Assembly: GCA_963833125.1 (NCBI GenBank)
Contig: CAWHWX010000012.1
Span: 70,403-134,402 of the forward strand
Origin: Candidatus Bathyarchaeota archaeon
GTDB taxonomy: Archaea; Thermoproteota; Bathyarchaeia; 40CM-2-53-6
Reading direction: 5' to 3'
Length of the DNA stretch: 64,000 bases
Shown: positions 5,735 to 35,067 of the stretch, piece after piece
Layout of the letters: the number at the start of each line of letters is the position of its first letter
How positions within the stretch are numbered: position 1 is the first letter of the stretch
Made by a program: the position numbers and the translations under genes
The notes under the pieces: generated by a model
Databases searched by the model: none
What the model was told of the DNA's origin: nothing
What the model saw: only the letters and a program-made list of their open reading frames with translations

Positions 5735-6166
5735 TTAGGACGTTTCGATCGCTACGGGTTTGTCAGTTACCTCGCTGATCTGGTCTTCAATAGATGTCTT
5801 GTGCTTGAGGACATTCTTTGTCAGCTGGTCCATTCGTCGACGCAATTCTGAGTTATGAGCGGTGAGGGTCTCTTTCTCGCGGTGAATACTCGCTAAGGAT
5901 TGGTCCAATTGCTCCATTCTATCAAAAAGTCCAGAAGCCTTCAGCTGGCGAAGTGTTTCCTGGATATTCGCTTGAATCGCCAAATATTCTTCACGCATTT
6001 TGTCGACGACGCCAGCCTTGAATTGTTGTATCACCTCTTCTGCTCTATGGAGCCTTCGTTCCTCGATATCTAGATCTCCGCGCGCCAGTTCATCGCTTAG
6101 TTGGTCGAGCAGTCGAGTCAAGGCAAATGTTTGTCCGCCTGCGACCGTATCTATCGTGATTATCAA
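5735..6166 (-). CDS. coiled-coil protein (possibly the C-terminal part of the upstream ORF)
   Basis: Heptad-rich, charged sequence. TTG start. Overlaps the upstream ORF by 77 nt in another frame. Confidence 0.5.
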   Translation of the reverse strand: MIITIDTVAGGQTFALTRLLDQLSDELARGDLDIEERRLHRAEEVIQQFKAGVVDKMREEYLAIQANIQETLRQLKASGLFDRMEQLDQSLASIHREKETLTAHNSELRRRMDQLTKNVLKHKTSIEDQISEVTDKPVAIETS

Positions 6167-6950
6167 TCAGGCTGCGCAGCGTCCCAATATCCACGGTTTT
6201 GTTCCGGTTTGATGCGGCCTCTCGTTCGAGTTTTGTGAGGGGCTTGATTACCGGCTGGAAGAACTGCTTTATCTCGTCTCCTTTAGCTTGTAGCGAGTTC
6301 TCATAGCCTTTCAATTCAAGATATGCTTCCTCAGAAGCAACGTTCTCCTTAGCTGCCTGTATTTCCTTCTCTTTGCCTTTCAATTCTTCAAGAGAGTTAG
6401 TCTGTTCGTTCTCCTCGGCTCTGAGTTTCCGGAGTTCACTGTGCATCTGTGGTAGGAGTTGCGCATCTTTTTGCAGCAGCTCGAATTTATTTCCTGGGGA
6501 TTCATCAAGCGCTTTACCCAATGAGCGAACGGCTGATTCCATCCTCCCTAGGGCAACATTAAGTGCCGCCATTTCAACTCGTAGTCCACGGCGGAGTTTG
6601 GGAAGGTACTTGCGAACGGTCTTTATGATTTTATTAAGCGCCTCAACAGAGTCATCGTGAAACTTCTCTAAGTCTTGGTAGCTTGTCGAGGTTTGTTGTC
6701 GAGAAAGATTCTTGGATGTTTCCTGGATCGTTTGTGCCATACGGGTTCCGTAATCTGAGGCGGACTTATCCATCGTTCCCCATGCGTTCCGAACAGCCGC
6801 CTCTAACCTAGACGCTGCGCTTTCAAGGCTATTGCACGCCTCCTTCACAGCCCTGGTTCTTTCGGCAAACCGTTTCTCATGTTCATTCATTACTTTGCGT
6901 TCTAACGATTGACAGAAATTAGGCAGGTCATCGACGCCAATATCCGTCAA
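6090..6950 (-). CDS. long coiled-coil protein
   Basis: About 280 aa of E/K/L/Q-rich heptad sequence. The likelier start is the internal ATG (MNEHEKRF). Confidence 0.55.
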   Translation of the reverse strand: MTDIGVDDLPNFCQSLERKVMNEHEKRFAERTRAVKEACNSLESAASRLEAAVRNAWGTMDKSASDYGTRMAQTIQETSKNLSRQQTSTSYQDLEKFHDDSVEALNKIIKTVRKYLPKLRRGLRVEMAALNVALGRMESAVRSLGKALDESPGNKFELLQKDAQLLPQMHSELRKLRAEENEQTNSLEELKGKEKEIQAAKENVASEEAYLELKGYENSLQAKGDEIKQFFQPVIKPLTKLEREAASNRNKTVDIGTLRSLIDNHDRYGRRRTNICLDSTARPTKR

Positions 6951-6952
6951 TC

Positions 6953-7870
6953 CTATCCCGCCACTCGATTGTCCGTGTTTCCCGAAGTCGACGAATCCTC
7001 TTTCTGAGCGTCCTGACTTTGGATCCTAAGTCGGTCTAGAGAGGCCTCTACTGCTTGGCGAATTTGTTCGCAGACGCTTCTTCTAATCTCCAATCCATCG
7101 TCTACCGTACTTTCTTTCAATTTCGCCAACTGCTGCCTTAACTCCGCTTCTTGCACGCTGACCTGTTTTCGTTTTTCCTGATAGTTAGATCTCAAGCCGT
7201 CCAGTTGTAGTTTGAGTTTCTCTTCCTTACCATGTAGGGCGCTTTTTTTCGATTGAAGCGAATGCGAGCTACCTTCAATTTTGACTTTCGACCTGCCGAG
7301 GATCCTGTCGAGCACGGTAGGCTTCTTGCGGAGCAGCTTCAGCCTTTCTGCATCGAGGGCATCAATCTCGCCGCGAATCTTATCTATGGATCTCTCATAC
7401 CCTCTTCTCGCTTCATGTGTCCGGTTCCTTTGCTCTCTTTCCAGATCAGAAATTTCAACATCATATATCGACAACTGCTTTTGTAAATCCGTGACTTGAG
7501 TAGAGAGGGCCATCTCTCCCTCGATTCTCTTTGTGAGTTCGTTTCGTATATTCGTCATCAGCGTTGTTATCGTGGCCTCGTATTGCTTGTCCGCTGCATC
7601 AGGTATGGAATCCTTGAAGTCGGCCAAGACACTCTCTATATCCTTCAACCAACGCTGGAAATGCTCGTAGAACGGAGGTAGGGCGAAGCGTTGGTTTCCT
7701 AAATGATCGAGCGCGTTCGTTATTCTTGATGAGACATCATGAGGGTTTACCGGGATTACTTCTTGATAGGGGAATGCGTTTTCTGGTCTAGTTCTTTCTT
7801 CTTTGAGGGCGGGTTTCTTCGTCGATGCTCTACGAGAGCGCATGCCGCGAGTACGTGGTTCGTAGCTCAT
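6953..7870 (-). CDS. long coiled-coil protein with basic N-terminus
   Basis: ATG start. Basic tail MSYEPRTRGMRSRRASTKK followed by about 200 aa of coiled coil. Its stop abuts the next ORF. Confidence 0.6.
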   Translation of the reverse strand: MSYEPRTRGMRSRRASTKKPALKEERTRPENAFPYQEVIPVNPHDVSSRITNALDHLGNQRFALPPFYEHFQRWLKDIESVLADFKDSIPDAADKQYEATITTLMTNIRNELTKRIEGEMALSTQVTDLQKQLSIYDVEISDLEREQRNRTHEARRGYERSIDKIRGEIDALDAERLKLLRKKPTVLDRILGRSKVKIEGSSHSLQSKKSALHGKEEKLKLQLDGLRSNYQEKRKQVSVQEAELRQQLAKLKESTVDDGLEIRRSVCEQIRQAVEASLDRLRIQSQDAQKEDSSTSGNTDNRVAG

Positions 7871-7921
7871 GGTTGGTCCGTTCGATTTTCTCTGTATATA
7901 TGTAAAGCGTGAGTCGGCGTT

Positions 7922-8395
7922 CTAGTGGCTCTCAGGGCTCCTTAGCCAATAGTGGCGTATCGTTAAACCTGCGACTATTCCGCCTGCGTGGGCCAGAAAA
8001 CCGCCACCCGCGAAGACATTCAATCCGATGAATAAGATCATACCGACGAGTCCCTTCCAGCCTCCCGCTGCCGCAAGCAGTCCAAATATTGCCCCGGAGG
8101 CACCCACGCCTATCGCGTTGCCTCCAAGAAAGAGGAACGCAATATTCCCAGCCAGTCCACTTGCGAAATATGTAACTAACCATTTCTTTCTTGAGACTTG
8201 CTCCTCGAGAGAGGTTCCGAAGATTAGGAGAAACAGTACGTTTCCACCGAGGTGTGAAGGGTTCGCGTGAAGGAATAACGATGTGAACAGCATCCACACT
8301 GCGCCTTGCCAAACAGCTGAATTTACTTGAGCAAGCGGGTAGAACACATCGTAATTAAGGGAAAGCAAGTTGCCGCCAACAATCCCCGTAATCAA
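7922..8395 (-). CDS. rhomboid-family intramembrane serine protease
   Basis: Contains LHANPSHLGGNVLFL (H..N), GASGAIFGL (GxSG) and AHAGG (catalytic His). The N-terminus probably continues upstream in another frame (MAEQRNSRIRDSPSVL...). Confidence 0.8.
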   Translation of the reverse strand: MITGIVGGNLLSLNYDVFYPLAQVNSAVWQGAVWMLFTSLFLHANPSHLGGNVLFLLIFGTSLEEQVSRKKWLVTYFASGLAGNIAFLFLGGNAIGVGASGAIFGLLAAAGGWKGLVGMILFIGLNVFAGGGFLAHAGGIVAGLTIRHYWLRSPESH

Positions 8396-16500: not shown

Positions 16501-18156
16501 TTGGGGTCTTCAGGGCGATTGCTAGCGATTATTGCCTTATCCATCATGTTCGCCGCTCTCCATGTATCCTACGCATTTGCTGACAACAGCTACACAGTTA
16601 CTATCACAGTTCAGGGTTTACCGTCTTCCCTTTCAACGAAAGTCTACGTTGATGGGAGTTATAATGGAACACTGAGCGGTGGGAGCTCAGACACGTTAAC
16701 GCTTTCAATAAATGACAACCCGCATGCCATCTTGGTTGATTCTTATGTGCAAGGGACCGGAAATGGGACACGATATTACGAGAATGATACAGTGTGGGGT
16801 ATCAGCTCACCAGGCAGCCATATGTTCACTTACGTCGCTCAATATTTTCTGTCCGTGGAAACCGCCTTTAGCTCAGCTACAGGCCAATCGTGGTACAACG
16901 CAGGTTCGACTGCTCAGGCCGTGCTTAACGATCAACAAATTGTCGAGGGGCAAGGAACGCGAAACATATTCACAGGTTGGTCTGGCGACGCGACAGGGAC
17001 GCAATTGACTTCGAATGCAATAATTATGGACGGACCAAAGGTCGCAACCGCGAATTGGAAAACCCAGTTTTACTTAACCATTGAATCTAACCCAGCGAAC
17101 GTCACTAGCTTGACAGGTTCTGGGTGGTATGATTCGGGCGTAGACGCTAACTTTTCTGCTGTTATGGTAGCGTCTGGGACATCGAATACGCGCTTGGAGT
17201 TCGATCATTGGAGCGGTGAATACACAGGGCAGCAACCTTCGGGGATGGTGTTGATGGATCGTCCAAAAATTGTCAGTGCCAATTATCTTGTTCAATACCT
17301 TCTGACCGTTATGTACTCCTCACCGAGCGTTTCATCCTCATACAACGAGACTCACGCAGGTTGGTACGCTGCGAATTCTAGCGTGCAACTCGGGCCCGCA
17401 CCATCAATTATCAATTTGAGTACCGTGGAGCGGTTGCGATTTATCGGTTGGTCTGACAACGGTTCTGTATCGAAGAATCTATCGTACTCTGTTTTGGTAG
17501 TTGGGCCACTAAACGTAACTCTCTCCTACACGACGCAATACTATGTTGACGTACGCTCTACATACGGAACGGCTTCCGGTTCGGGTTGGTACGATCGAGG
17601 GACAACCGCAACGATTACCTCCCCAACTACTTCAGGCACCTGGCCCGTTTCGTATGCGCTGACCGGGTGGAGCGTTGACCCGCCCACCGGAACTCTGAAC
17701 AGTACAGAGAATTCGTGGATGTTAACCGTCAATGGGCCATACGTAGTACAGGCAGAATGGGGAGTAGATTACGTCCCACTGATCCTGCTCTTTGGCGGGA
17801 GCGCCGTCGCGTTTGCTGCTGTGGGAGTTACTGCGGTGGTAGTTCACAGGAGGAGTAAAGTTACCGGCAGATCTACTGCTCCTCGCCCGCAAAAAACCGG
17901 CCAGGCTATGTTAGGGTCGCTGGTAGTTTGCAACAGTTGCGGTAACAATGTGCCGAAGGGCGCGGAGTTCTGCGAGAAATGCGGAGCCCCGATCGCGCCA
18001 CTCATCGAACCTTCAACGGAGAATAAGGTATACGACTACATCGTAAAACACGAGGGTATAATTTCCTTGAGCGAAGCATCAGCAGATCTTGCGATACCTG
18101 TTGAGCAGCTAAAGGAAATAACTGAGCGTTTGAAGAGAGAGGGCCGTTTAAGTTAG
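16501..18156 (+). CDS. membrane protein: extracellular InlB-B-repeat-like domains, one TM, then cytoplasmic zinc ribbon + wHTH
   Basis: Signal anchor, then four or more repeats ending F/L-x-GWSGD/HWSGE/GWSDN/GWSVD. TM is LILLFGGSAVAFAAVGVTAVVV, followed by CNSCGNNVPKGAEFCEKCG and YDYIVKHEGIISLSEASADL. Confidence 0.65.
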   Translation: MGSSGRLLAIIALSIMFAALHVSYAFADNSYTVTITVQGLPSSLSTKVYVDGSYNGTLSGGSSDTLTLSINDNPHAILVDSYVQGTGNGTRYYENDTVWGISSPGSHMFTYVAQYFLSVETAFSSATGQSWYNAGSTAQAVLNDQQIVEGQGTRNIFTGWSGDATGTQLTSNAIIMDGPKVATANWKTQFYLTIESNPANVTSLTGSGWYDSGVDANFSAVMVASGTSNTRLEFDHWSGEYTGQQPSGMVLMDRPKIVSANYLVQYLLTVMYSSPSVSSSYNETHAGWYAANSSVQLGPAPSIINLSTVERLRFIGWSDNGSVSKNLSYSVLVVGPLNVTLSYTTQYYVDVRSTYGTASGSGWYDRGTTATITSPTTSGTWPVSYALTGWSVDPPTGTLNSTENSWMLTVNGPYVVQAEWGVDYVPLILLFGGSAVAFAAVGVTAVVVHRRSKVTGRSTAPRPQKTGQAMLGSLVVCNSCGNNVPKGAEFCEKCGAPIAPLIEPSTENKVYDYIVKHEGIISLSEASADLAIPVEQLKEITERLKREGRLS

Positions 18157-18593
18157 AAGAACGGATTCATGCCGTGTTCTGGTTGCTGGTACGTCGCCGG
18201 GTACTGTTGGTATTGGTACGGTTGGTACTGCTGTTGGTACTGCTGGGACTGCGCACTGAACTTCGGAGCTAGGCTCCAATAGCATTCCATGCAGAAGCTT
18301 AGAACTCCGTATTGCTTGTTGCAACCTGCACAAATCGACCTGCCGCACCGCGAACAAACAAATGCAGATGGTAGGTCATGGTGGTAGTAGCAGCTGCCCG
18401 GAGTTTGGATCTGTCTGGGAGTGTACATTGGAGGGGCTCGTGGGGTTGGAACGGTCTGGCCAGTTAATGGGGATTTCACTTCAACTTTGACTGGGGGAAA
18501 TCTTGAAAGTGCAGTGCCGCAACTGAAACAGAATCGTGCGTCCTCGGCGTTTGGTCTGCCGCATGATTGACAGGGAATCATATTCCGAACCAC
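18153..18593 (-). CDS. zinc-ribbon + B-box-like zinc-finger protein with Q/Y/P-rich tail
   Basis: CQSCGRPNAEDARFCFSCG, then C-x2-H-x8-C-x2-C-x4-C-x2-C-x9-C-x2-C (CYYHHDLPSAFVCSRCGRSICAGCNKQYGVLSFCMECY). Paralog of 22824-23666. The ATG alternative start is at 18581. Confidence 0.65.
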   Translation of the reverse strand: MVRNMIPCQSCGRPNAEDARFCFSCGTALSRFPPVKVEVKSPLTGQTVPTPRAPPMYTPRQIQTPGSCYYHHDLPSAFVCSRCGRSICAGCNKQYGVLSFCMECYWSLAPKFSAQSQQYQQQYQPYQYQQYPATYQQPEHGMNPFF

Positions 18594-18740
18594 TAAGCAA
18601 GTGTTTGTAGGCCGTTCTTAACGATTGCCCATTGAGAGAAGGCACGTGGATGGTTCGATTTCCCCATAGAAGCATGGAGTTAGGAAGGTTAGGTGGGAGG
18701 GAGTGTGTGAGAAACTGACATGAATATTTCAAAATCGATG

Positions 18741-19991
18741 TTAAGTCAATCGAAGTATTGATTCATGGAGTTCTTGGTTCTTGCCCTCAGCCAAGACTCT
18801 CAGGTAATCCCCCCGCTTGCCAGCCCTACGAAGTGGTGATTTACCCTCTATTTTCCGTGTCCCCTCCGAGTTTTCGGCGAAAATCGTGAGCTCTCCATCC
18901 CCAAGGTTAGACGCTTTACGAATTGATTCTTCTACCGTGGCCTTAGCAGCACGTGGGCTATCTAGCGGTAGGTCGTTTCGCGGGACGACGATCCTTCCCG
19001 TTCCGTCCTTCCCGCAAACAATGCATCGCACGCTTCGTTTGAGATCCATGGTGCTGTAGCGGTTGTTCTTGAGATCGACGAACAGGATTGATCTGAGCGG
19101 TTGACCAGTTGTTTCAGGCCACTTCGTGGTTGTCTTGTATGCCTCTAAACCGAGGATTACTTTGACCGCTTCTTGTGCGAGGATAGACGAGACTAGGGAA
19201 ATTGATGTCGCAAAGGAAGGAACGGTTTCTTGTTCCAGGGGTCCCTCGCATGGGTTGCGGAGGCCGGCGATGCTCGAATACTGGTTCGCGGGAAACATGC
19301 AAACTGGGCAAGCGTCATCGGGTGGTAGGTAGGAGTGAACCCTTCCGTTCAATCCAATAATTCCCGCGTCGATCAGAGGAATTGAGTATTTTCGGCAGGT
19401 TTGAGTAAGGAAGATTCGTGAGACGACATTGTCTAAACCGCAAACGATCACTTGGGAGTCCAGGTAAAGTTTCAATGGCATACGTTCGAGATCGCCGCGG
19501 TAAGCGGTCGTTGTTACGAATGGATACTTCAGATGAAGGTTCTTAGCCAAAAATTCGGCCTTGTTCCTGCCTAAGTCTTTAGGTTGGAAGAAGATCATTC
19601 GGCTTACGTTTGAGAGTTCGATACGGTCGCGGTCAACAATTACGATTCTCCCGACTCCCAGCATGGCGAGGTTTTTAGCAGCCTCGTTACCTATAGCCCC
19701 CGCGCCCGCCAAAAGCACCGTTGCGCTTCGAATCTTCTTCTGTCCTTCGGCGCCCCAGACAAGTAGTTGCCGAGCCCAGAGATAGTCTAGGATGATTGGG
19801 TCCTTTTCGGTTTTGAGTTTGGCAACGGTTGATGTTTCTGCCAGTCGCTTACCGTGGAACAGGCATTTTGTAAGGTCAGATTCTATGCCTAGTTTTCTAC
19901 AGGCTAATTGTTTGAATTCCCTGATCGTTCTTGTAGGGGGTAGATCAATCTCAATTTCCTTATACCGCGGGATAGACGCACGAAGTTTCAT
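18741..19991 (-). CDS. E1-like ubiquitin-activating enzyme (ThiF/MoeB fold) with fused N-terminal Ubl domain
   Basis: LLAGAGAIGNEAAKNLAMLGVGRIVIVDRDRIELSNVSR (nucleotide loop), plus CPVC and CIVCG zinc pairs. The first ~70 aa follow a ubiquitin-like pattern (CLFHGKRLAETSTVAKL...PIILDYL). Confidence 0.85.
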   Translation of the reverse strand: MKLRASIPRYKEIEIDLPPTRTIREFKQLACRKLGIESDLTKCLFHGKRLAETSTVAKLKTEKDPIILDYLWARQLLVWGAEGQKKIRSATVLLAGAGAIGNEAAKNLAMLGVGRIVIVDRDRIELSNVSRMIFFQPKDLGRNKAEFLAKNLHLKYPFVTTTAYRGDLERMPLKLYLDSQVIVCGLDNVVSRIFLTQTCRKYSIPLIDAGIIGLNGRVHSYLPPDDACPVCMFPANQYSSIAGLRNPCEGPLEQETVPSFATSISLVSSILAQEAVKVILGLEAYKTTTKWPETTGQPLRSILFVDLKNNRYSTMDLKRSVRCIVCGKDGTGRIVVPRNDLPLDSPRAAKATVEESIRKASNLGDGELTIFAENSEGTRKIEGKSPLRRAGKRGDYLRVLAEGKNQELHESILRLT

Positions 19992-20584
19992 TATCGCGGC
20001 GTCCGATTGCCCTTACCGGGGATGGTGAACGTCACTAAATCACCAGGTTGAGAGAGTACCGTTGGGGCTCTCGGGATAGGGACTATGTTGAAGTGAACGG
20101 TATCGTCCGATTCCTCTTTCGCTTTGTGCCTAGTCATTCTCGGAAACCCATGTGATCGGCAAACGTCGGCAGCTTTCAAGGCGCGGGGGTTATCGAAAAC
20201 ACTTTGTGGGTTCGGGTCCGTTAGGAGGTAGTGTAGTGAATTGACGACCGAAATTAGTTTGAGCCGTGGGTCCCATTTTTCTCCGAGGACAGATACGCAA
20301 ACTGCGTTTGGTATGTTCGGGACAATATTCGGGTGAGAGATATCGGTGAGCCAAGTCGCCACGGGAGGCTTCAATGGATATTCGGGTGGCAGGTCGAGTT
20401 TGAATCGATTCCAGTTCACGTACTCGGTGAAGGGCCAGACTCCTTTCTCGGCAAGTCGTCTCACCTCTCCTTTCTCGCACCGGATTAGGCCCTCGAATTG
20501 GGTAGGGGGGTCATTTAGCGCTGTGATTGTCGGGAATTGGTGGTTGAGGAGGCTCTTCTCCTTGTAAAGCAGGGTAGCGTCCAA
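19991..20584 (-). CDS. E2-like ubiquitin-conjugating enzyme (UBC fold, HPN type)
   Basis: PPEYPLKPPVATWLTDISHPNIVPN...AVCVSVLGEKWDP has the YPxxPP, HPN and catalytic Cys motifs and the W.P motif. The stop shares a base with the E1 ATG (TAATG). Confidence 0.85.
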   Translation of the reverse strand: MDATLLYKEKSLLNHQFPTITALNDPPTQFEGLIRCEKGEVRRLAEKGVWPFTEYVNWNRFKLDLPPEYPLKPPVATWLTDISHPNIVPNIPNAVCVSVLGEKWDPRLKLISVVNSLHYLLTDPNPQSVFDNPRALKAADVCRSHGFPRMTRHKAKEESDDTVHFNIVPIPRAPTVLSQPGDLVTFTIPGKGNRTPR

Positions 20585-20596
20585 GCGGTTTCAGCC

Positions 20597-20839
20597 CTAC
20601 CCGCCAATTATGTTGTATGGCATGAGGGCGAGTTGCGCATTTTCTGGAATGCCGGATCTCGCTACGGTAGTGCCTTCGTCTAATATTGCGCCTCCGTACA
20701 TGAGAGCGACCGTTGTTGGGTCAACCCCAAATGACGTACACACCTGCTGCTTAATCTCTGCAACCGTGTGGTCAGGGATTACGTCGATCTCTGCCAGACC
20801 TGTCTGAGGGCCTATGGGGGCTTGAATGAATAATTTCAT
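20597..20839 (-). CDS. ubiquitin-like modifier ending in Gly-Gly
   Basis: 80 aa: MKLFIQAP...DHTVAEIKQQVCTSFGVDPTTVALMYGGAILDEGTTVARSGIPENAQLALMPYNIIGG, then stop. GGAGGTGA lies 10 nt upstream (20850-20857). Confidence 0.8.
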   Translation of the reverse strand: MKLFIQAPIGPQTGLAEIDVIPDHTVAEIKQQVCTSFGVDPTTVALMYGGAILDEGTTVARSGIPENAQLALMPYNIIGG

Positions 20840-20894
20840 CTTCTATCGTTCACCTCCACTCATGCTGCCTTGTCTCTCCATATAGGAGCCTAAA

Positions 20895-22433
20895 CTACCT
20901 TACTGTAAGCTCGACAGTTAGGGCGTGTACGAGCCCGCCTCCAACTGCCTCTATCGTGATAGGGTAGGTCCCTCCCTTTGTAAAGGCTGGTATTGTTATT
21001 TGGATTGTTATTGTAGTCGTTCCGGGGCCTCCAGGTAGAACAGTCGGGTTGCTTGTCAAGGTATACTTTGCTCCTTGAGGGAGGTTCAGCAAGGTTATGT
21101 TCACAGGGTCTACGAACCCTTTTTGGAGAGTTAACCTAAGATTAAGTGTCGCCTTTGAACCGGTCTGTACTGTGACACTGGTTGGCGAGATTTGCAGTGA
21201 GAAATCGGCTACCGTTATGTTAAGTACTGTTTGTCTGGTTACATACGGTGATTGAGAGGGTAGGTAGTCGGCAATCAGAGCTATTGGATAGGTGCCGTTA
21301 GGGGTAGTCGAGTCTGCGGTCACATTCAAGCTCACGGTTGTTCCTGTAGGAGCAGGGTTTGTCGAGAATGTGATCGTTAAGCCGCTGGGGTTTCCGTTGG
21401 CCGAGAGCTGGACTTGTTGTGCGAACTCATTGATTGACACTATCTGGATCTTTGTGACTGCATACCTCGTTCTGTACACTGTGAGCGAGCTGGTTTGTGG
21501 TAGGATGTTGAAATCCGCAATGACGATGTGGTATGTGTTCGTGTTGACTTGCTTGCCTGTAGAATCTGATGCTCTGATGTAGTAGGTGATGTTTCCGGTC
21601 ACCTGATTACTTGGGATGACGTAGCTGAATTCTCCGGTCCCAATCGAATTCATGGGGACTTGTGTGGTTGGGCCCTCGGTTGCTGGGCCATAAACCAAGG
21701 TTACGTTATGCGCAGGACCAGTTGTGTTGGCAGTAATCGTAATTGGTGTTCCAATGGTCCCTACCGAGACGGGGTTATGAATGATGGCTACCGACGATTG
21801 CGGGGATGTCTTGTAACTATAGATTAGGCCTCCAAATACTGCCAGCAACACAACCAGAACAACCAAGACCATGGCCAGCGCTGCACGCTTTGTCAGGACT
21901 TGTCGTGCAGGTGGTCGTCGTCTGACTTCTACAGTCGGCGTGGGCGCTACAACCGTAGCTGTCGTTTGACGCGGTGGGGTGGCGTCCTTTGGATCAGAGT
22001 AAACTATTATGTTCGCTTCGGGGATCCGAATGGCTTTGTCAGTTCCTGGGATCACCCTGAAGTATCCGACTTCTCCGTTTCTTGAATCAACCACCAAGCC
22101 TGTAATCAATGCTGAGAATTGCTGTAACTTTTTTTGAGTTGAAATGTCCGTCTCGGAAAAGAATAATCCATCCCTAGTGTGTGAGTGGTACCATCCTACG
22201 ATGTTGCCTTTGAGGCGTCCAGAAACGAGTTGATCGGCTATGATTGCTATGGAGCCGGGCGGTAGTGTGGCGCGATGAGGTTCGGATGAGAATTCATGAG
22301 TGGTTGAGTCTTCGATGATTATTGTGTCGTCTTGGAGTTTGCCGAGTAGTAGCCCAATAATCTCGGTTTCGGTGTCCCGTGCAGCTTGGACAATCCTGTC
22401 CTTGACAGGTTTCGAGATGCTGACGTAGGACAT
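20895..22433 (-). CDS. JAMM/MPN+ (Rpn11-like) metalloprotease fused to a TM helix and extracytoplasmic Ig-like repeats
   Basis: EIIGLLLGK...GWYHSHTRDGLFFSETD (E, HxH-x7-S-x2-D). TM is AALAMVLVVLVVLLAVFGGLIY, followed by ~300 aa of beta-rich T/V/N repeats. Confidence 0.85.
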   Translation of the reverse strand: MSYVSISKPVKDRIVQAARDTETEIIGLLLGKLQDDTIIIEDSTTHEFSSEPHRATLPPGSIAIIADQLVSGRLKGNIVGWYHSHTRDGLFFSETDISTQKKLQQFSALITGLVVDSRNGEVGYFRVIPGTDKAIRIPEANIIVYSDPKDATPPRQTTATVVAPTPTVEVRRRPPARQVLTKRAALAMVLVVLVVLLAVFGGLIYSYKTSPQSSVAIIHNPVSVGTIGTPITITANTTGPAHNVTLVYGPATEGPTTQVPMNSIGTGEFSYVIPSNQVTGNITYYIRASDSTGKQVNTNTYHIVIADFNILPQTSSLTVYRTRYAVTKIQIVSINEFAQQVQLSANGNPSGLTITFSTNPAPTGTTVSLNVTADSTTPNGTYPIALIADYLPSQSPYVTRQTVLNITVADFSLQISPTSVTVQTGSKATLNLRLTLQKGFVDPVNITLLNLPQGAKYTLTSNPTVLPGGPGTTTITIQITIPAFTKGGTYPITIEAVGGGLVHALTVELTVR

Positions 22434-22823
22434 GAGTTTGTTTCCCTTTACTTTCTTATCTTATAGCTTGATTGGATGGCCTAATCTTTCGACATAGGAT
22501 GATATGGATTACGCGGTTTCCTGGCGTCCATCTGGGCATTGTATAGAGTGAAGCACAAGATGGGGAGCTGCAGTCTAGCGTTGTGAAGCATGGTTCAAAG
22601 CGAACAGATGTTATTGGGCCCGGGTTAATGGAACAACAGAATCATGGATTAGGGACAGCTTGTGGATGTTTGAAACTATCCAGCAGTTCTAACAATCTTT
22701 TCGGACTGAAGCTCACTAGTCAGCTTTAGGGCTCGCTGGTCCCCACTGGAGACTGAGCGTCCCGGAAGTTTACAGGGAAGAAGTGAAAGATAAGAAAAAA
22801 AAATTTGGGGGTGCCCTACGCTT

Positions 22824-23666
22824 CTATCGTCCAAGCATGCCGAGTATTCCGCCCAGCACACCTAAGACGAAGCCGGCCACAAAGCCTCCACCGATTATGA
22901 GGCTTAGCACTGCCATCGGGAAGACGACGATGCTTCCGATTGTTCCGTAGCCAAGCAGCATCAGTATTGACCCGATTACCAGTATTAGCCCTATGATTAC
23001 GCCGATTGCGAATGATAGGCTAGCAGGGCCGAGTGCTGGCAACCAGAAGAATACTCCGACCCACATCGCGTAGAACCCAGGCGCAAGCAAAGCTGCTGCG
23101 TTGAGGATTACAAGTATCCCAGCGATTACTGAGAGAATGAATCCCCATAGTGATCTGGGTGACGAGGGGGCGTACATTGGCGGTGGTGGATACACTGGGT
23201 AGGCAGCTGCTGGTGGAGCCATCGGTGGTGGACCGAATGCTGGTCCAGCCATAGGTGGAGCCATCATAGGTGGCGCTGCCATAGGCGGTTGGCTATAGGA
23301 TTGAGCCATTGGCTGTTGGGGCGGGCTATAGGCGGCTTGTGCTGGTTGTTGTGCTACCATTGGAACGACTCCTGCGTAACATTGCGGGCACAGGACGAGA
23401 TCCATGTATGCTTTTGAGTCATCGCAACAAATCGACCTTCCACAGCGGTTGCAGACGTATACTGCTGGGAGGTTGGGGTGATAATAGCATTGTCCTGGTG
23501 CGGGCACACGAATAGGTCCGCCTTGGCTGACTGGTGTTACTACGCGGACGGATGGGACTGGTTTGAGTGAGGGGACCGCGCTGCCTGCGAGAGATGCTCC
23601 ACAGCTTGAACAGAATGATGCGTCATCACGATTGTTGTAGCCGCATGATGGGCATTTCTTGACCAT
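22824..23666 (-). CDS. zinc-ribbon + B-box-like zinc finger + P/M/A-rich linker + multi-TM domain protein
   Basis: CPSCGYNNRDDASFCSSCG and CYYHPNLPAVYVCNRCGRSICCDDSKAYMDLVLCPQCY, then a low-complexity PPMAAPPMM stretch and about four TM helices. Confidence 0.7.
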   Translation of the reverse strand: MVKKCPSCGYNNRDDASFCSSCGASLAGSAVPSLKPVPSVRVVTPVSQGGPIRVPAPGQCYYHPNLPAVYVCNRCGRSICCDDSKAYMDLVLCPQCYAGVVPMVAQQPAQAAYSPPQQPMAQSYSQPPMAAPPMMAPPMAGPAFGPPPMAPPAAAYPVYPPPPMYAPSSPRSLWGFILSVIAGILVILNAAALLAPGFYAMWVGVFFWLPALGPASLSFAIGVIIGLILVIGSILMLLGYGTIGSIVVFPMAVLSLIIGGGFVAGFVLGVLGGILGMLGR

Positions 23667-24355: not shown

Positions 24356-24865
24356 CTAGTGGCATTGAAGAGAATTTCTCATGGAGTCCATGATCCTATC
24401 GTATCTGCCACCGCTTCCGCTTGGCGTCATAGTGTACAGCACGTAATATCTGTTTGATTTGGGGCAGTGAACGTGTAAGGAATATGCTTCCCTCGGAATG
24501 CTCTTGCTTCCAGTTAGGCCAGCTGATCTTTCGTCGAACTTAACCTTGTTCACGGAAACTTTGTGATTGTGTAGGGATAATGTGTCACGGGATACTCGCT
24601 CGAAGTTCTTCACATTCTTGCCCTTCTTCATGGCGTCAAGGCTGAAATCTGCGTGTTCTTCGGTAGTTGGGAATCGTTTAGAGACCTTCTCCAAATCTCC
24701 CCAAGAGAGGTATATTCTAACCCGGTCCACTTTGTCGGGGAGATGGAACACGACGTCGCCTGATTCGCGCCGCCCTTTCGAGTTGAATTCGACCCGGCTC
24801 TCTTCAGGGTAGTCTAACGAGAAGCCGTAGATGCTGAAATTTTCGAAGGAATCTGTCACAGCCAA
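24356..24865 (-). CDS. hypothetical protein
   Basis: Long ORF with a TTG start and no recognisable motif. Confidence 0.4.
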   Translation of the reverse strand: MAVTDSFENFSIYGFSLDYPEESRVEFNSKGRRESGDVVFHLPDKVDRVRIYLSWGDLEKVSKRFPTTEEHADFSLDAMKKGKNVKNFERVSRDTLSLHNHKVSVNKVKFDERSAGLTGSKSIPREAYSLHVHCPKSNRYYVLYTMTPSGSGGRYDRIMDSMRNSLQCH

Positions 24866-34593: not shown

Positions 34594-35067
34594 TTGAGAT
34601 ATGGAACGGTCGGGTTTGGTTTACTACTTGTCATTCTGCTCGTTTTGGTCGCAGGCTACTCGACGCAGATATTGGAAGTCGCTGCAGATGGAGCGTGTGC
34701 TAATGTTCTTTTTTCCTCTTCAGAACAGAACGGAGTTACCAGCAATCTTGGAACAATAACTGCATTCGGCGACGAAATGGTGCTTCCAAGAACTCGTGGA
34801 CCTTGTCCTGGAAGTTACCCGATAGTATACACGCCTGCCGGAGGCTACATTTTTGTAAGCTGGCAGACAACTGGCGGCTGCAGTGTAGCAGATGTTAACG
34901 CCGCATCTACGACATTGATTGTTGTCTCGGATTGCTCAGTGACTGCGATTTACAGTGTGGCACCACCACCGATACCTGAATACCCAATCGGCCTACCAAT
35001 CATAGCAATCCTCGCGATAATCGGTTACAGTTTAGTTAAACGTCGAACAAGAAACTATAGCACCTAG
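34594..35067 (+). CDS. secreted protein with PEF-CTERM-like sorting signal
   Basis: TTG start, signal anchor, and C-terminus IPEYPIGLPIIAILAIIGYSLVKRRTRNYST. Confidence 0.7.
   Translation: MRYGTVGFGLLLVILLVLVAGYSTQILEVAADGACANVLFSSSEQNGVTSNLGTITAFGDEMVLPRTRGPCPGSYPIVYTPAGGYIFVSWQTTGGCSVADVNAASTTLIVVSDCSVTAIYSVAPPPIPEYPIGLPIIAILAIIGYSLVKRRTRNYST

Follow-up and report, generated by a model that had tools for sequence, protein, structure and literature searches.

The 64-kb stretch of DNA analyzed here (the window), from a soil/sediment archaeon of the Bathyarchaeia, encodes a ubiquitin-type cascade at positions 18153-23666 of the minus strand. This observation of a preliminary description is confirmed, and our comparisons support the cascade as a genuine one of eukaryotic type, the agreement of the cluster genes with the known sequence motifs being far greater than expected by chance. 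Judged from sequences and structure models, we consider it rather probable that this chromosomal system would attach and remove a eukaryote-type ubiquitin-like modifier (Ubl) on the cytoplasmic side of the membrane, with B-box proteins as the likeliest E3-like adaptors.

Layout and conservation of the gene block

We found all six previously listed minus-strand open reading frames (ORFs) in place. A seventh, convergent gene lies beyond the region described before, and we take the block to comprise seven genes in truth. The features are as follows.

22824-23666, minus strand: zinc-finger protein, 280 aa
22792..22803, minus strand: oligo-T tract (nine T, then CTT), ~20 nt past the stop of the 280-aa gene
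22455..22466, minus strand: TATA-like box CTATAAGATAAG, ~30 nt 5' of the JAMM ATG, read by eye
20895-22433, minus strand: JAMM protein, 512 aa, with a cytoplasmic JAMM/MPN+ domain (residues 1-140)
20597-20839, minus strand: Ubl, 80 aa
19991-20584, minus strand: E2, 197 aa, TTG start
18741-19991, minus strand: E1, 416 aa, with a Ubl domain (residues 1-70) and zinc CxxC pairs (residues 228/231 and 323/326)
18153-18593, minus strand: soluble zinc-finger protein, 146 aa as called
16501-18156, plus strand: convergent surface protein, 551 aa

The six genes had been characterized as tightly packed, which is true of JAMM-Ubl-E2-E1 and not of the two flanking zinc-finger genes, as 390 nt separate the 280-aa gene from the JAMM gene and ~150-160 nt separate the E1 gene from the 146-aa gene. 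Only JAMM-Ubl-E2-E1 looks like a single operon, and each of the two flanking genes is apparently transcribed on its own. The oligo-T tract resembles an archaeal-type terminator, and the putative TATA-like box would provide the JAMM-Ubl-E2-E1 unit with its own promoter. Within this unit, the 12-nt gap between Ubl and E2 was verified in the sequence, as was the overlap of the E2 stop with the E1 start (TAATG at 19993-19989, base 19991 common to both). The packing is repeated in 30 related loci, with a Ubl-E2 gap of -10 to 17 nt and an E2-E1 junction of mostly -4 or -1 nt.

A gene-neighborhood survey, as the preliminary description had proposed, showed that the block is conserved in 30 species-level Bathyarchaeia genomes (Ubl in 30/30, E1 in 27/28 and the JAMM domain in 24/28). 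The housekeeping neighbors PGK, RpiA, acyl-CoA dehydrogenase and DHDPS are syntenic across species, and no mobile or defence genes were found near the locus in these shared surroundings. From this context, we read the system as chromosomal and vertically inherited. Public MAGs already auto-annotate genes as E2 and ThiF, so that parts of it are visible in databases.

Conjugation and deconjugation enzymes

In the Pfam profile search, Ubl, E2, E1 and JAMM all scored above the gathering thresholds. The Ubl (Pfam ubiquitin, 37.4 bits, 2.2e-9) matches ubiquitin and CsUb among PDB structures. As noted before, it ends in ...NIIGG immediately 5' of the stop codon, i.e. it is encoded in mature form, and a ribosome-binding site GGAGGTGA is located at 20850-20857 on the minus strand, 10 nt before its ATG. 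No other protein of the block is conserved as strongly (79-99% identity across 30 species); in this comparison the GG is invariant and K30 is the sole invariant lysine. Eight of the 30 species carry 1-5 extra residues past the GG, and a protease is therefore required there for Ubl maturation.

The E2 (Pfam UQ_con, 59.8 bits, 3e-16) contains all the hallmarks EYPLKPP, SHPNI, AVCVSVL and KWDP, and its closest solved structures are UBC4/5 and UbcH5 (~1e-12, PDB). The HPN is present and the predicted catalytic Cys95 lies within AVCVSVL; catalytic and ligand residues are invariant among 28-31 orthologues of the core proteins. Family-specific features are an insert of 17 residues including WPFTEY and a C-terminal tail of ~50 aa, and relatives start with TTG, GTG or ATG at the homologous position. 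In the alignment, loop 7 reads W-D-P-R compared to W-S-P-A in UbcH5. This change presumably alters the RING-binding surface, which makes an E2 working without an E3 possible.

For the E1 (Pfam ThiF, 169.4 bits, 9.4e-50), the AGAGAIG nucleotide loop and the cysteine pairs CPVC and CIVC were verified. The proposal that it carries a Ubl domain of its own is borne out by an N-terminal beta-grasp domain, which exceeds the Pfam ubiquitin gathering score (28.8 bits, 1.1e-6), is modeled by AF2 with a pLDDT of ~90 and aligns to the operon Ubl in hhalign (96.4%, E 1.3e-9). A candidate catalytic Cys248 is part of an invariant RNPCEG in a crossover loop that is short and flexible; a beta-rich C-terminal domain (338-415) is placed where a UFD would be. 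With the AF2 model of the E1 (pLDDT 83.6, pTM 0.85), the best Foldseek match was UBA3 (1e-20 over 428 columns), and the TM score to ThiF/MoeB was 0.84. The closest relative is UBA3 by fold and the active adenylation domain of UBA1 by sequence.

The JAMM protein has an intact E23...H82-S-H84-x7-S92-x2-D95 motif (Pfam JAB, 43.3 bits, 3.6e-11; Prok-JAB, 1.1e-9) and finds CsRpn11 of Caldiarchaeum as best PDB match (6fjv, 1.6e-12), followed by CSN5 and Rpn11. Hydropathy assigns a single TM helix at 177-210, flanked on its N-terminal side by RRR...KR and followed by an Ig-like extracellular part of ~300 aa. The JAMM is membrane-anchored in 24/28 loci by one of two anchor types, an Ig-like ectodomain or DUF998, and its domain is absent in 4/28.

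Zinc-finger and surface proteins

In line with the reported lack of a RING gene, the canonical RING pattern was found in no ORF of the whole 64-kb window. Instead of a RING-H2 protein as in Caldiarchaeum, the block encodes two ribbon plus B-box-like proteins. The 280-aa protein begins with a zinc ribbon (C-x2-C-x10-C-x2-C), which a linker containing an invariant lysine joins to a B-box-like finger (C-x2-H-x8-C-x2-C-x4-C-x2-[C/D]-x9-C-x2-C); next come a spacer rich in Pro, Ala and Met and ~4 TM helices, which hydropathy locates in 169-280. At full length it matches Pfam Zn_Ribbon_1 with 2.2e-8 and zf-B_box with merely 0.082. At least 22/26 related loci have such a ribbon, B-box and TM protein, with a match to its N-terminus 5' of the JAMM gene. 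The soluble protein, whose real start is probably the ATG at 18581 (142 aa), combines a ribbon, a linker with an invariant PPVKV, a B-box-like finger and a Q/Y/P-rich tail (Pfam DZR 7.3e-7, zf-B_box 0.012), and it is paralogous to the 280-aa protein in the latter's N-terminal half. Such a soluble gene follows the E1 on its 3' side in 21/25 loci and is absent in 4/25.

The B-box-like finger has eight invariant ligands in the family alignments, and when the isolated domain is scanned, 22/22 members match zf-B_box above any other Pfam family (best 1.1e-6). The two proteins of the window score 13.5-19.7 bits for zf-B_box, below the gathering score of 24.1. AF2 models the ribbon of the soluble protein with a pLDDT of ~88 and the B-box-like part with a moderate 65-72; a Foldseek search with the B-box-like domain model gave no significant match (best E 0.8). 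The window has three CxxCG-x9-CxxCG ribbons and two B-box-like motifs, and every one of them falls inside the block. By inspection, the zinc ribbons of the block do not contain the dipeptide T-F with which NZF fingers bind ubiquitin. B-boxes count among the binuclear treble clefs of RING-like type, and in eukaryotes they are mostly assembly modules rather than catalytic E3s.

The convergent 551-aa protein (Pfam Flg_new_2 8.7e-10, Zn_Ribbon_1 3.2e-6) comprises a signal/anchor, an InlB-B-repeat-like ectodomain, a TM helix (421-449, by hydropathy) and a cytoplasmic tail, in which a zinc ribbon (475-498) precedes a winged-helix-like domain of ~50 aa (503-551). The tail is the only part kept in all relatives, and a winged-helix-tail protein is present in 23/23 loci, counting those that extend far enough. 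Its domain matches wHTH families (HTH_24 in 13/19, best 8.6e-5) and, among PDB structures, shows a weak profile match to the winged helix of CdvB (ESCRT-III; 2xvc, E 0.037).

The earlier assignment of the deubiquitinase and one flanking zinc-finger protein to the membrane agrees with hydropathy (1 and ~4 TM helices), and hydropathy with positive-inside flanks backs the membrane topology of the module. Membrane association is kept across the 30 species of Bathyarchaeia and is seen again in archaeal relatives further away, and we take it to be no accident of one genome. One such relative (L035) has an E2 with a C-terminal ribbon, a JAMM carrying two ribbons and a ribbon-bearing 2-TM protein; another (L039) has an E2 with a ribbon, a ribbon plus B-box protein and a B-box plus 4TM protein; a third (L038) has a zinc finger plus TM protein and a ribbon plus 3TM protein. 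The flanking genes of the ribbon-fused relatives otherwise differ.

Proposed function and relation to known systems

In the reading we prefer, the ThiF/UBA3-like E1 is predicted to adenylate the Ubl at its free GG and to form a thioester on Cys248, from where the Ubl would pass via the E2 to target lysines. The Rpn11-like JAMM, with its metal site intact, would strip the Ubl from targets and, in species with residues past the GG, also process the precursor. Conserved linkage and domain fusions suggest that four accessories organize this cascade at the membrane: the polytopic ribbon plus B-box protein, its soluble paralogue, the anchored JAMM and the single-pass surface protein with ribbon and winged-helix tail. 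The B-box-like fingers are the likeliest candidates for E3-like adaptors, a role held by the RING protein in Caldiarchaeum, and the zinc ribbons probably dock the Ubl or the enzymes, because ribbons are fused to E2 and JAMM in the distant relatives. Membrane or surface proteins, the linked winged-helix-tail protein among them, are the likeliest targets; their cytoplasmic tails would be tagged to govern turnover or signaling.

A soluble, E3-independent system, in which E1, E2 and JAMM tag cytosolic proteins and the zinc-finger and surface genes are just neighbors or substrates, appears rather unlikely. It would account for the separate spacing, probable promoter and terminator of the flanking genes, the absence of the soluble B-box gene from some loci and the sub-threshold B-box assignment; moreover, bacterial Bil is described as functioning without an E3 (PMC10557695; 10.1101/2023.09.04.556158), and prokaryotic JAMM operons are described with just Ub, E1 and E2 (Fuchs 2018, PMC6043591). 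However, it does not fit a JAMM that itself sits in the membrane by two types of anchor, the constant winged-helix-tail protein, the ribbon fusions amid different flanks or the confinement of all ribbon and B-box motifs of the window to the block.

Distinctly less probable is a transmembrane switch resembling yeast Spt23/Mga2, in which the surface protein would be a tethered winged-helix transcription factor, released or destroyed upon a Ubl tag that E2/B-box writes and a receptor-like JAMM erases. Its tail matches DNA-binding wHTH families (HTH_24, TrmB, MarR), its gene is the most constantly linked accessory, and the variable ectodomains of surface protein and JAMM suit sensing; but the wHTH matches are weak, and the domain is small and best matched by the protein-binding winged helix of CdvB.

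Antiviral defence of the Bil/Bub or CBASS-Cap2/Cap3 kind, with the Ubl placed on viral structural proteins during infection, is very improbable. The four-part set of Ubl, E1, E2 and JAB is identical, the E1 matches the PADLOC E1-E2 (3e-19) and BilD (2.4e-8) models, and surface proteins could serve as virus receptors. In contrast, PADLOC has no match for E2 or Ubl and marginal ones for JAB, the surroundings are the same housekeeping genes in all 30 species, and the strong Ubl conservation runs counter to the fast divergence that defence genes usually show. Furthermore, the E2 core is of the eukaryotic HPN type and does not have the CEHH motif of Bil (PMC11354881). Hardly credible is, finally, that a pathway of the ThiS/MoaD-ThiF/MoeB or SAMP/UbaA type, serving sulfur transfer or cofactor synthesis, was misread as ubiquitylation, as the matches of the E1 to ThiF/MoeB/UbaA NCBIfam models (1e-34 to 1e-25) and its public annotation as "molybdopterin/thiamine biosynthesis adenylyltransferase" stand against scores well under the curated cut-offs (e.g. 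117 vs 275, 88 vs 450), a UBC E2 and Rpn11-like JAMM translationally coupled to the E1, a Ubl that groups with ubiquitin and not ThiS/MoaD in Pfam, and the absence of a rhodanese domain and of thiamine/Moco genes nearby.

The nearest comparison for the membrane-linked cascade is the ubiquitin operon of Candidatus Caldiarchaeum subterraneum, reportedly described by Nunoura in 2011. That operon comprises Ub, E1, E2 and a small RING-finger protein, with Rpn11 adjacent (PMC5654768; PMC6043591). Both are gene clusters of TACK archaea with a eukaryote-type Ubl, an HPN-type UBC E2 (31% identity), a ThiF-derived E1 with zinc CxxC pairs and an Rpn11-like JAMM expected to both mature and remove the Ubl. 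Unlike in Caldiarchaeum, membrane anchors are found on the JAMM, one B-box protein and the winged-helix-tail protein, the E1 carries a Ubl domain at its N-terminus but no ~60-aa Cys-domain insert, the Ubl is encoded with a terminal GG, the order is JAMM-Ubl-E2-E1 with a co-directional JAMM, and the alignment reveals the WPFTEY insert of the E2. Asgard Clusters I and II likewise contain eukaryotic-type Ub/E1/E2 operons, linked to ESCRT genes (Hennell James 2017, PMC5654768); some of their E1s have a C-terminal ubiquitin-fold domain, and a connection to membrane remodeling was proposed. Whereas the Asgard clusters hold RING and ESCRT/UEV genes, the Bathyarchaeia block has neither, and its membrane link is the direct TM anchoring of deubiquitinase and zinc-finger proteins. 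As to the statement that no described system fits, our literature search found no published description of a RING-less, membrane-anchored variant, but by sequence we assign the system to the Caldiarchaeum/Asgard type, with the RING replaced by B-box-like fingers and the accessories anchored in the membrane.

Prokaryotic "JAMM-3" operons also combine homologues of Ub, E1 and E2 with a JAMM nearer to Rpn11/CSN5 than to desampylases, and no E3 or RING; the passages on them do not mention membrane anchoring, B-box/ribbon partners or a Ubl-E1 fusion (Fuchs 2018, PMC6043591). Bil (BilABCD/Bub) shares the four-gene logic of Ubl, E2, JAB and E1 that can function in the absence of a dedicated E3, but its E2 is of the CEHH type and the Bil systems are located in defence islands, in contrast to an HPN-type E2 in a vertical housekeeping context. 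Membrane ubiquitylation in eukaryotes involves the TM RING ligases MARCH/Doa10/Hrd1, TRIM B-box proteins and endosomal AMSH-type JAMM deubiquitinases. By analogy, the outline would be alike, with a TM-anchored zinc-finger adaptor, a soluble UBC E2 and a membrane-held JAMM facing the cytoplasm; the sequence relation is confined to domain superfamilies, however, the finger is B-box-like and not RING-CH/RING-H2, and the deubiquitinase spans the membrane itself and bears an ectodomain.

In this context, prokaryotic B-boxes have been tied to the folding, stability and proteolysis of membrane proteins, in the survey as summarized elsewhere (Burroughs, Iyer, Aravind 2011, via PMC4506424), and they share with our block a binuclear B-box-type finger on or beside membrane proteins. 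In comparison to that summary, the Bathyarchaeia B-box proteins are genomically bound to a full Ub/E1/E2/JAMM set. For these fingers, such a linkage would bring a "prokaryotic membrane" context together with a "eukaryotic ubiquitin" one, and the system may hint at a possible form of membrane-linked ubiquitylation before eukaryotes.

Gene layout and distribution of the block

The genes considered here lie on the Bathyarchaeia contig CAWHWX010000012.1 (window positions):

18153-23666, minus strand: block of six genes, for a 280-aa zinc-finger protein, JAMM, Ubl, E2, E1 and a 146-aa zinc-finger protein
20597-20839, minus strand: Ubl, the 80-aa ubiquitin-like protein of the block
16501-18156, plus strand: convergent gene for a 551-aa surface protein

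All six minus-strand ORFs named in the preliminary description are present in the sequence, and the raw sequence bears out the details given there for the core: the Ubl ends in NIIGG directly at the stop codon, its ribosome-binding site GGAGGTGA is located 10 nt before the ATG, 12 nt separate the Ubl from the E2, which starts with TTG, and the E2 stop and E1 start overlap within TAATG. The tight packing ascribed to the whole block holds for JAMM-Ubl-E2-E1, but not for the two outer zinc-finger genes: downstream of the 280-aa gene lie a 9-T tract and a 390-nt spacer with a TATA-like box (sequence reading), and a gap of about 150 nt lies between E1 and the 146-aa gene. For the 146-aa ORF, the ATG at 18581 is likely the true start, as it is in the homologues. 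Across all related loci the core genes are translationally coupled.

Scanning one genome per prokaryotic species gave a set of 30 loci, 26 with Bathyarchaeia or Bathyarchaeota in their titles, one titled 'archaeon' and three with bacterial labels. Records of three related loci (L007, L009, L013) and four homologous proteins (P0090, P0129, P0228, P0243) name Nitrospiraceae, Acidiferrales, Acidoferrum, Methylomirabilota or Terriglobales; the bacterial-labelled contigs and proteins are probably mis-binned Bathyarchaeia contigs. Close homologues of the E2 are recorded as 'ubiquitin-conjugating enzyme E2 [Candidatus Bathyarchaeia archaeon]', and Bathyarchaeia as a lineage have many relatives in public metagenomes of soil, peat and sediment. 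The tblastn survey of these loci confirmed that the six members described earlier are conserved, but extended the proposed six-gene architecture by a seventh, convergent member.

Table. Presence of the components, counted only over loci whose contig extends far enough (tblastn)
Ubl: 30/30 loci
E1: 27/28 loci
JAMM domain: 24/28 loci
Upstream protein with ribbon (zinc ribbon), B-box and transmembrane helices (TM): at least 22/26 loci
Downstream soluble ribbon and B-box paralogue: 21/25 loci
Winged-helix-tail protein: 23/23 loci

The flanks consist of housekeeping genes whose order is conserved (acyl-CoA dehydrogenase, COXG-like, ribose-5-phosphate isomerase, PGK, DHDPS). A co-directional 169-aa ORF (24356-24865, minus strand) with no Pfam match lies upstream of the block, at a distance of about 700 nt. 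Since it is conserved just in the closest relatives, L005-L009, it is probably outside the system. Elsewhere in the window, positions 6001-8000 have the strongest AT skew (-0.27) and hold minus-strand ORFs at 6090-6950 and 6953-7870 without Pfam matches, which adjoin a rhomboid protease gene (7922-8395).

The catalytic proteins

As had been read from the sequence, the block encodes a ubiquitin-like protein, an E2, an E1 and a JAMM protease, and all four proteins exceed the curated Pfam thresholds (ubiquitin, UQ_con, ThiF, JAB). The Ubl scores 37.4 bits against ubiquitin PF00240 (gathering cut-off 25.4, E 2.2e-9), and its matches among solved structures are ubiquitin, the Rad23 UBL and the Caldiarchaeum ubiquitin CsUb. 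Its C-terminal GG, as needed for adenylation, is invariant in 31 orthologues. The Ubl tail contains no Arg, so that trypsin would leave a remnant larger than the usual GG on modified lysines. Over the locus set, identity amounts to 79-99% for the Ubl, 41-88% for E1 and 28-85% for the JAMM protein. As K30 is the sole invariant lysine of the Ubl, chains, if any, would be of a single linkage type. The Ubl of eight species carries one to five residues beyond the GG, so that a maturing protease is needed there. GGSC, GGQMV and GGAAPWI are examples of tails in relatives. One of the loci, L032, has no JAMM domain upstream of the Ubl, yet its Ubl has a five-residue tail past the GG; there, the protease must be encoded elsewhere.

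For E1, E2 and JAMM, motif conservation was judged over 28-31 orthologues. The E2 reaches 59.8 bits against UQ_con PF00179 (cut-off 27), with a match spanning profile positions 48-122 only, and its best solved relatives are UBC4/UBC5/UbcH5-type E2s (about 1e-12). The HPN...Cys segment SHPNIVPNIPNAVC is invariant among orthologues and aligns with HPN...C of UbcH5. RING proteins contact UbcH5 at its W-S-P-A loop; in the alignment, the corresponding loop 7 of the E2 reads W-D-P-R. When 1.84 billion representative proteins were searched exhaustively with HMMER, this type of E2 formed a compact subfamily, with 15 clusters (at 50% identity) at E <= 1e-30 and 39 at <= 1e-10, below which a continuum of ordinary UBCs follows; its hallmark is a 17-residue insert containing WPFTEY. 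The JAMM protein scores 43.3 bits against JAB (cut-off 22.5), with the metal motif E-x(n)-H-x-H-x7-S-x2-D present and invariant among orthologues, and its best solved match is the Caldiarchaeum Rpn11-like protease CsRpn11 (6fjv, 1.6e-12), followed by CSN5 and Rpn11.

The E1 has a ThiF domain (169 bits, Pfam) in which GAGAIG, C228/C231 and C323/C326 are invariant among orthologues, and an additional N-terminal ubiquitin-family domain (28.8 bits). The earlier claim that the E1 carries its own Ubl domain could be sharpened, as this domain specifically resembles the Ubl of the operon (hhalign 96.4%, E 1.3e-9). By sequence, UBA1 is the best solved relative, through its active adenylation domain (1e-33). 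The AlphaFold2 (AF2) model (pLDDT 83.6, pTM 0.85) places a confident beta-grasp at residues 1-70 and the ThiF fold after it. In Foldseek, UBA3 ranks first, over about 428 columns to full length, and ThiF and MoeB match the core with a TM score of 0.84. The crossover loop 242-259, disordered in the model, carries Cys248, which is invariant within RNPCEG. The stretch from the CxxC to Cys248 is just 17 residues long, and no separate catalytic-Cys domain follows the loop; in this the E1 resembles ThiF, MoeB and UBA5, in contrast to the Caldiarchaeum and eukaryotic E1s, which have such a domain. Residues 338-415 form a confident, beta-rich C-terminal domain (b-a-b-b-b-b, AF2), which has no Pfam match and no sequence similarity to the Ubl (hhalign 0.1%). 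In view of the fold ranking, the missing Cys domain and the extra N-terminal Ubl domain, the E1 is a hybrid: a UBA3-like outline with a possible ubiquitin-fold domain (UFD), without a Cys domain and with an additional Ubl domain. Possible roles of the latter are that of a pseudo-substrate, E2 recruitment or docking.

Taken from sequences and models, these data support four catalytic parts that are intact, conserved and co-translated. In comparison with described systems, the block has its enzyme types and their working in common with the ubiquitylation operons of Caldiarchaeum and Asgard archaea. Of the five parts of a Caldiarchaeum-type operon (Ub, E1, E2, small RING, adjacent Rpn11), four are found here. 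Because the RING protein is absent, the block is, as far as its gene content tells, not of the Caldiarchaeum operon type, and some of its features have not been reported for that type. It may belong to the 'JAMM-3' class of Ub/E1/E2 operons, to which Fuchs et al. devote one sentence. A sulfur carrier of the SAMP/UbaA or ThiS-ThiF/MoaD-MoeB kind was rejected on the E1 scores (NCBIfam UbaA 87.7 vs 450, ThiF 117 vs 275); the E2 is translationally coupled to E1, unlike in E2-independent sulfur-carrier chemistry. The antiviral Bil/Bub system was discarded, with PADLOC models recognising neither E2 nor Ubl, with housekeeping syntenic flanks and with the conservation of the Ubl.

Zinc-finger proteins and membrane-anchored partners

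The two flanking zinc-finger proteins are paralogues, about 40% identical in their first 100 residues. Each holds a C-x2-C-x10-C-x2-C ribbon (Zn_Ribbon_1/DZR above the Pfam threshold), a linker with an invariant lysine and a second domain of the pattern C-x2-H-x8-C-x2-C-x4-C-x2-[C/D]-x9-C-x2-C, whose eight ligands are invariant. Scanned alone, this second domain has zf-B_box as top family in 22/22 members (best E 1.1e-6), followed by the ANCHR-like B-box and IBR families of Pfam. Against zf-B_box PF00643, the window copies score 16.2 and 13.5 bits, and 19.7 bits for the domain alone (gathering cut-off 24.1). In the AF2 model, the ribbon has a pLDDT of about 88 and the B-box-like part of 65-72. 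Foldseek found no significant PDB match to the model, with only LIM/FYVE-like noise for the second domain, and a profile search of that domain against PDB sequences returned generic C2H2/TraR/LIM matches only. Owing to the sub-threshold window scores, the pLDDT of 65-72 and the lack of a Foldseek match, the cautious 'B-box-like' appears to be the best label for the second domain.

For the ribbon, Foldseek gives a superposition on the RanBP2 fingers of Nup153, with an rmsd of about 1 A for 23 residues, and the ribbon spacing together with the Asn at +4 is that of a RanBP2 finger as well (weak Pfam match, 0.02). A function as NZF-type ubiquitin binder was retained just in the general form of a possible docking module, since the T-F ubiquitin-binding dipeptide is missing or unconserved. 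The linker motifs with the invariant lysine read PPVKVEVKSP in one paralogue and LKPVPSVRVV in the other (18480-18500, 23560-23580). The linker is otherwise disordered; this part of it may be a short motif for docking or the site of a modification.

The absence of a RING gene, stated in the preliminary description, extends to the whole 64 kb: a regular expression for the C3H2C3/C3HC4 pattern, even in loose form, found none in any of the six-frame ORFs. Pfam RING families give marginal matches in a minority of the zinc-finger family members. In a pattern scan of the same 64 kb, all three ribbons of the exact type and both B-box-like motifs fall inside the block. The membrane anchoring proposed for one zinc-finger protein agrees with the predicted topology of the 280-aa product, in which ribbon and B-box are cytoplasmic and about four TM follow. 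According to PMC4506424, which quotes Burroughs et al. (2011), prokaryotic B-boxes are tied to the folding and stability of membrane proteins and to their proteolysis.

For the JAMM protein, hydropathy and charge predict a cytoplasmic JAMM domain, one TM and an Ig-like ectodomain, the anchor found in most species. A DUF998-type polytopic domain replaces TM and Ig-like anchor in one subclade (L001-L004, L014, L017-L020), and in another (L021, L024, L031-L033) the TM-ectodomain protein is kept and the JAMM domain is gone. That the location stays constant while the anchor changes argues that membrane location of the JAMM matters.

The third protein with a predicted membrane anchor is the surface protein of about 550 aa, whose ribbon and winged-helix tail should be cytoplasmic, behind a TM (hydropathy and charge). 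Its gene is the accessory gene most constantly linked to the block (23/23 loci). Solely the tail, that is the ribbon and a winged-helix-like domain of about 50 aa, is universally conserved; the ectodomain undergoes wholesale replacement between clades. The C-terminal winged helix of CdvB is a protein-binding domain. The tail (17995-18153; alignment A4) has a weak, single match (E 0.037) to this winged helix of Sulfolobus CdvB/ESCRT-III (2xvc), and a link to the Cdv/ESCRT machinery is possible, as a lead and not a claim. At 34594-35067 (plus strand), 16 kb away, a small protein has an InlB-B-repeat-like Flg_new_2 domain, as does the 551-aa ectodomain.

Distant relatives, proposed mechanism and significance

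Four distant relatives with 30-50% identity repeat the theme of the block with different parts.

Table. Composition of the distantly related loci
L035/L036, in gene order: Ubl; E2 with C-terminal ribbon; short E1; 2-TM protein with ribbon; JAMM with two ribbons
L037: archaellin-like protein; Ubl; E2; Ubl-E1; 3-TM protein; JAMM; LRR surface protein
L038: zinc-finger and TM protein; Ubl; E2; Ubl-E1; ribbon and 3-TM protein
L039: JAMM; Ubl tailed after GG; E2 with ribbon; Ubl-E1; ribbon and B-box protein; convergent surface protein; B-box and 4-TM protein

Proteins identical to the L035/L036 products are named 'Thermoplasmata archaeon'. The ribbon fusions are located at 8001-10752 in L035/L036 and at 1301-2263 in L039, where a Pro/Tyr-rich disordered spacer of about 130 residues precedes the ribbon of the E2. 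Of all the evidence, the direct fusion of ribbons to E2 and JAMM speaks most strongly for a place of the ribbons in the machinery.

Following established E1/E2/JAMM enzymology, the E1 would adenylate the GG end of the Ubl and then bind it as thioester on Cys248, from where the Ubl would move to Cys95 of the E2 and on to lysines; the JAMM would reverse conjugation and trim Ubl precursors. Linkage, fusion and topology suggest that the reaction may be organised at the inner face of the membrane, with the B-box-like proteins as E3-like adaptors, the ribbons as docking modules and the tails of membrane and surface proteins as likely targets. Caveats to this scheme are the W-D-P-R of E2 loop 7 where UbcH5 has the RING-contacting W-S-P-A, the sub-threshold B-box scores, and the lack of the soluble paralogue in some lineages or of the JAMM domain. 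In its most specific form, the reading is a tentative one: in membrane-protein ubiquitylation the B-box, not a RING, would serve as E3, ribbon-docked E2~Ubl would pass the Ubl to cytoplasmic tails of surface proteins, and the receptor-like, TM-anchored JAMM would erase the mark. Equally speculative is the part in which the two B-box proteins, the polytopic one and the soluble one, recruit E2~Ubl and the linked winged-helix-tail receptor is among the targets.

We found no literature description of a ubiquitin system in Bathyarchaeia/Bathyarchaeota, though a Bathyarchaeota genome may appear among the clusters that Hennell James 2017 shows in a figure, nor of a ubiquitin system whose B-box and ribbon partners are membrane-anchored; the closest mention is that M67 isopeptidases occur in Bathyarchaeota MAGs. 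In public MAGs, however, automatic annotation already labels the genes as E2 and ThiF.

To our knowledge, experiments on archaeal eukaryote-like ubiquitylation are confined to one Caldiarchaeum operon, and discussion centres mainly on Asgard archaea. Bathyarchaeia carry a complete, strongly conserved HPN-type E2/Rpn11-type system whose accessory parts follow a different logic: it lacks a RING and has B-box-like fingers, zinc ribbons and three partners anchored in the membrane. On a conservative reading, archaeal ubiquitin systems are more widely distributed and more varied in architecture than was known. Provided that the proteins act as inferred, small prokaryotic proteins would make it possible to test how B-box-based and membrane-embedded ubiquitin ligases arose, the E1 would be an example of a minimal enzyme that has a Ubl domain built in, and the system would suggest that tagging of membrane proteins is older than the eukaryotic endomembrane system. 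Should the reading of the B-box as E3 be true, it would be a living link from prokaryotic membrane B-boxes to eukaryotic B-box/TRIM, ERAD and endocytic ligases, and the first non-eukaryotic ubiquitin system with the membrane as its primary arena. The accessory roles are predictions, and the system bears on early steps in the evolution of E3s and membrane-linked ubiquitylation.
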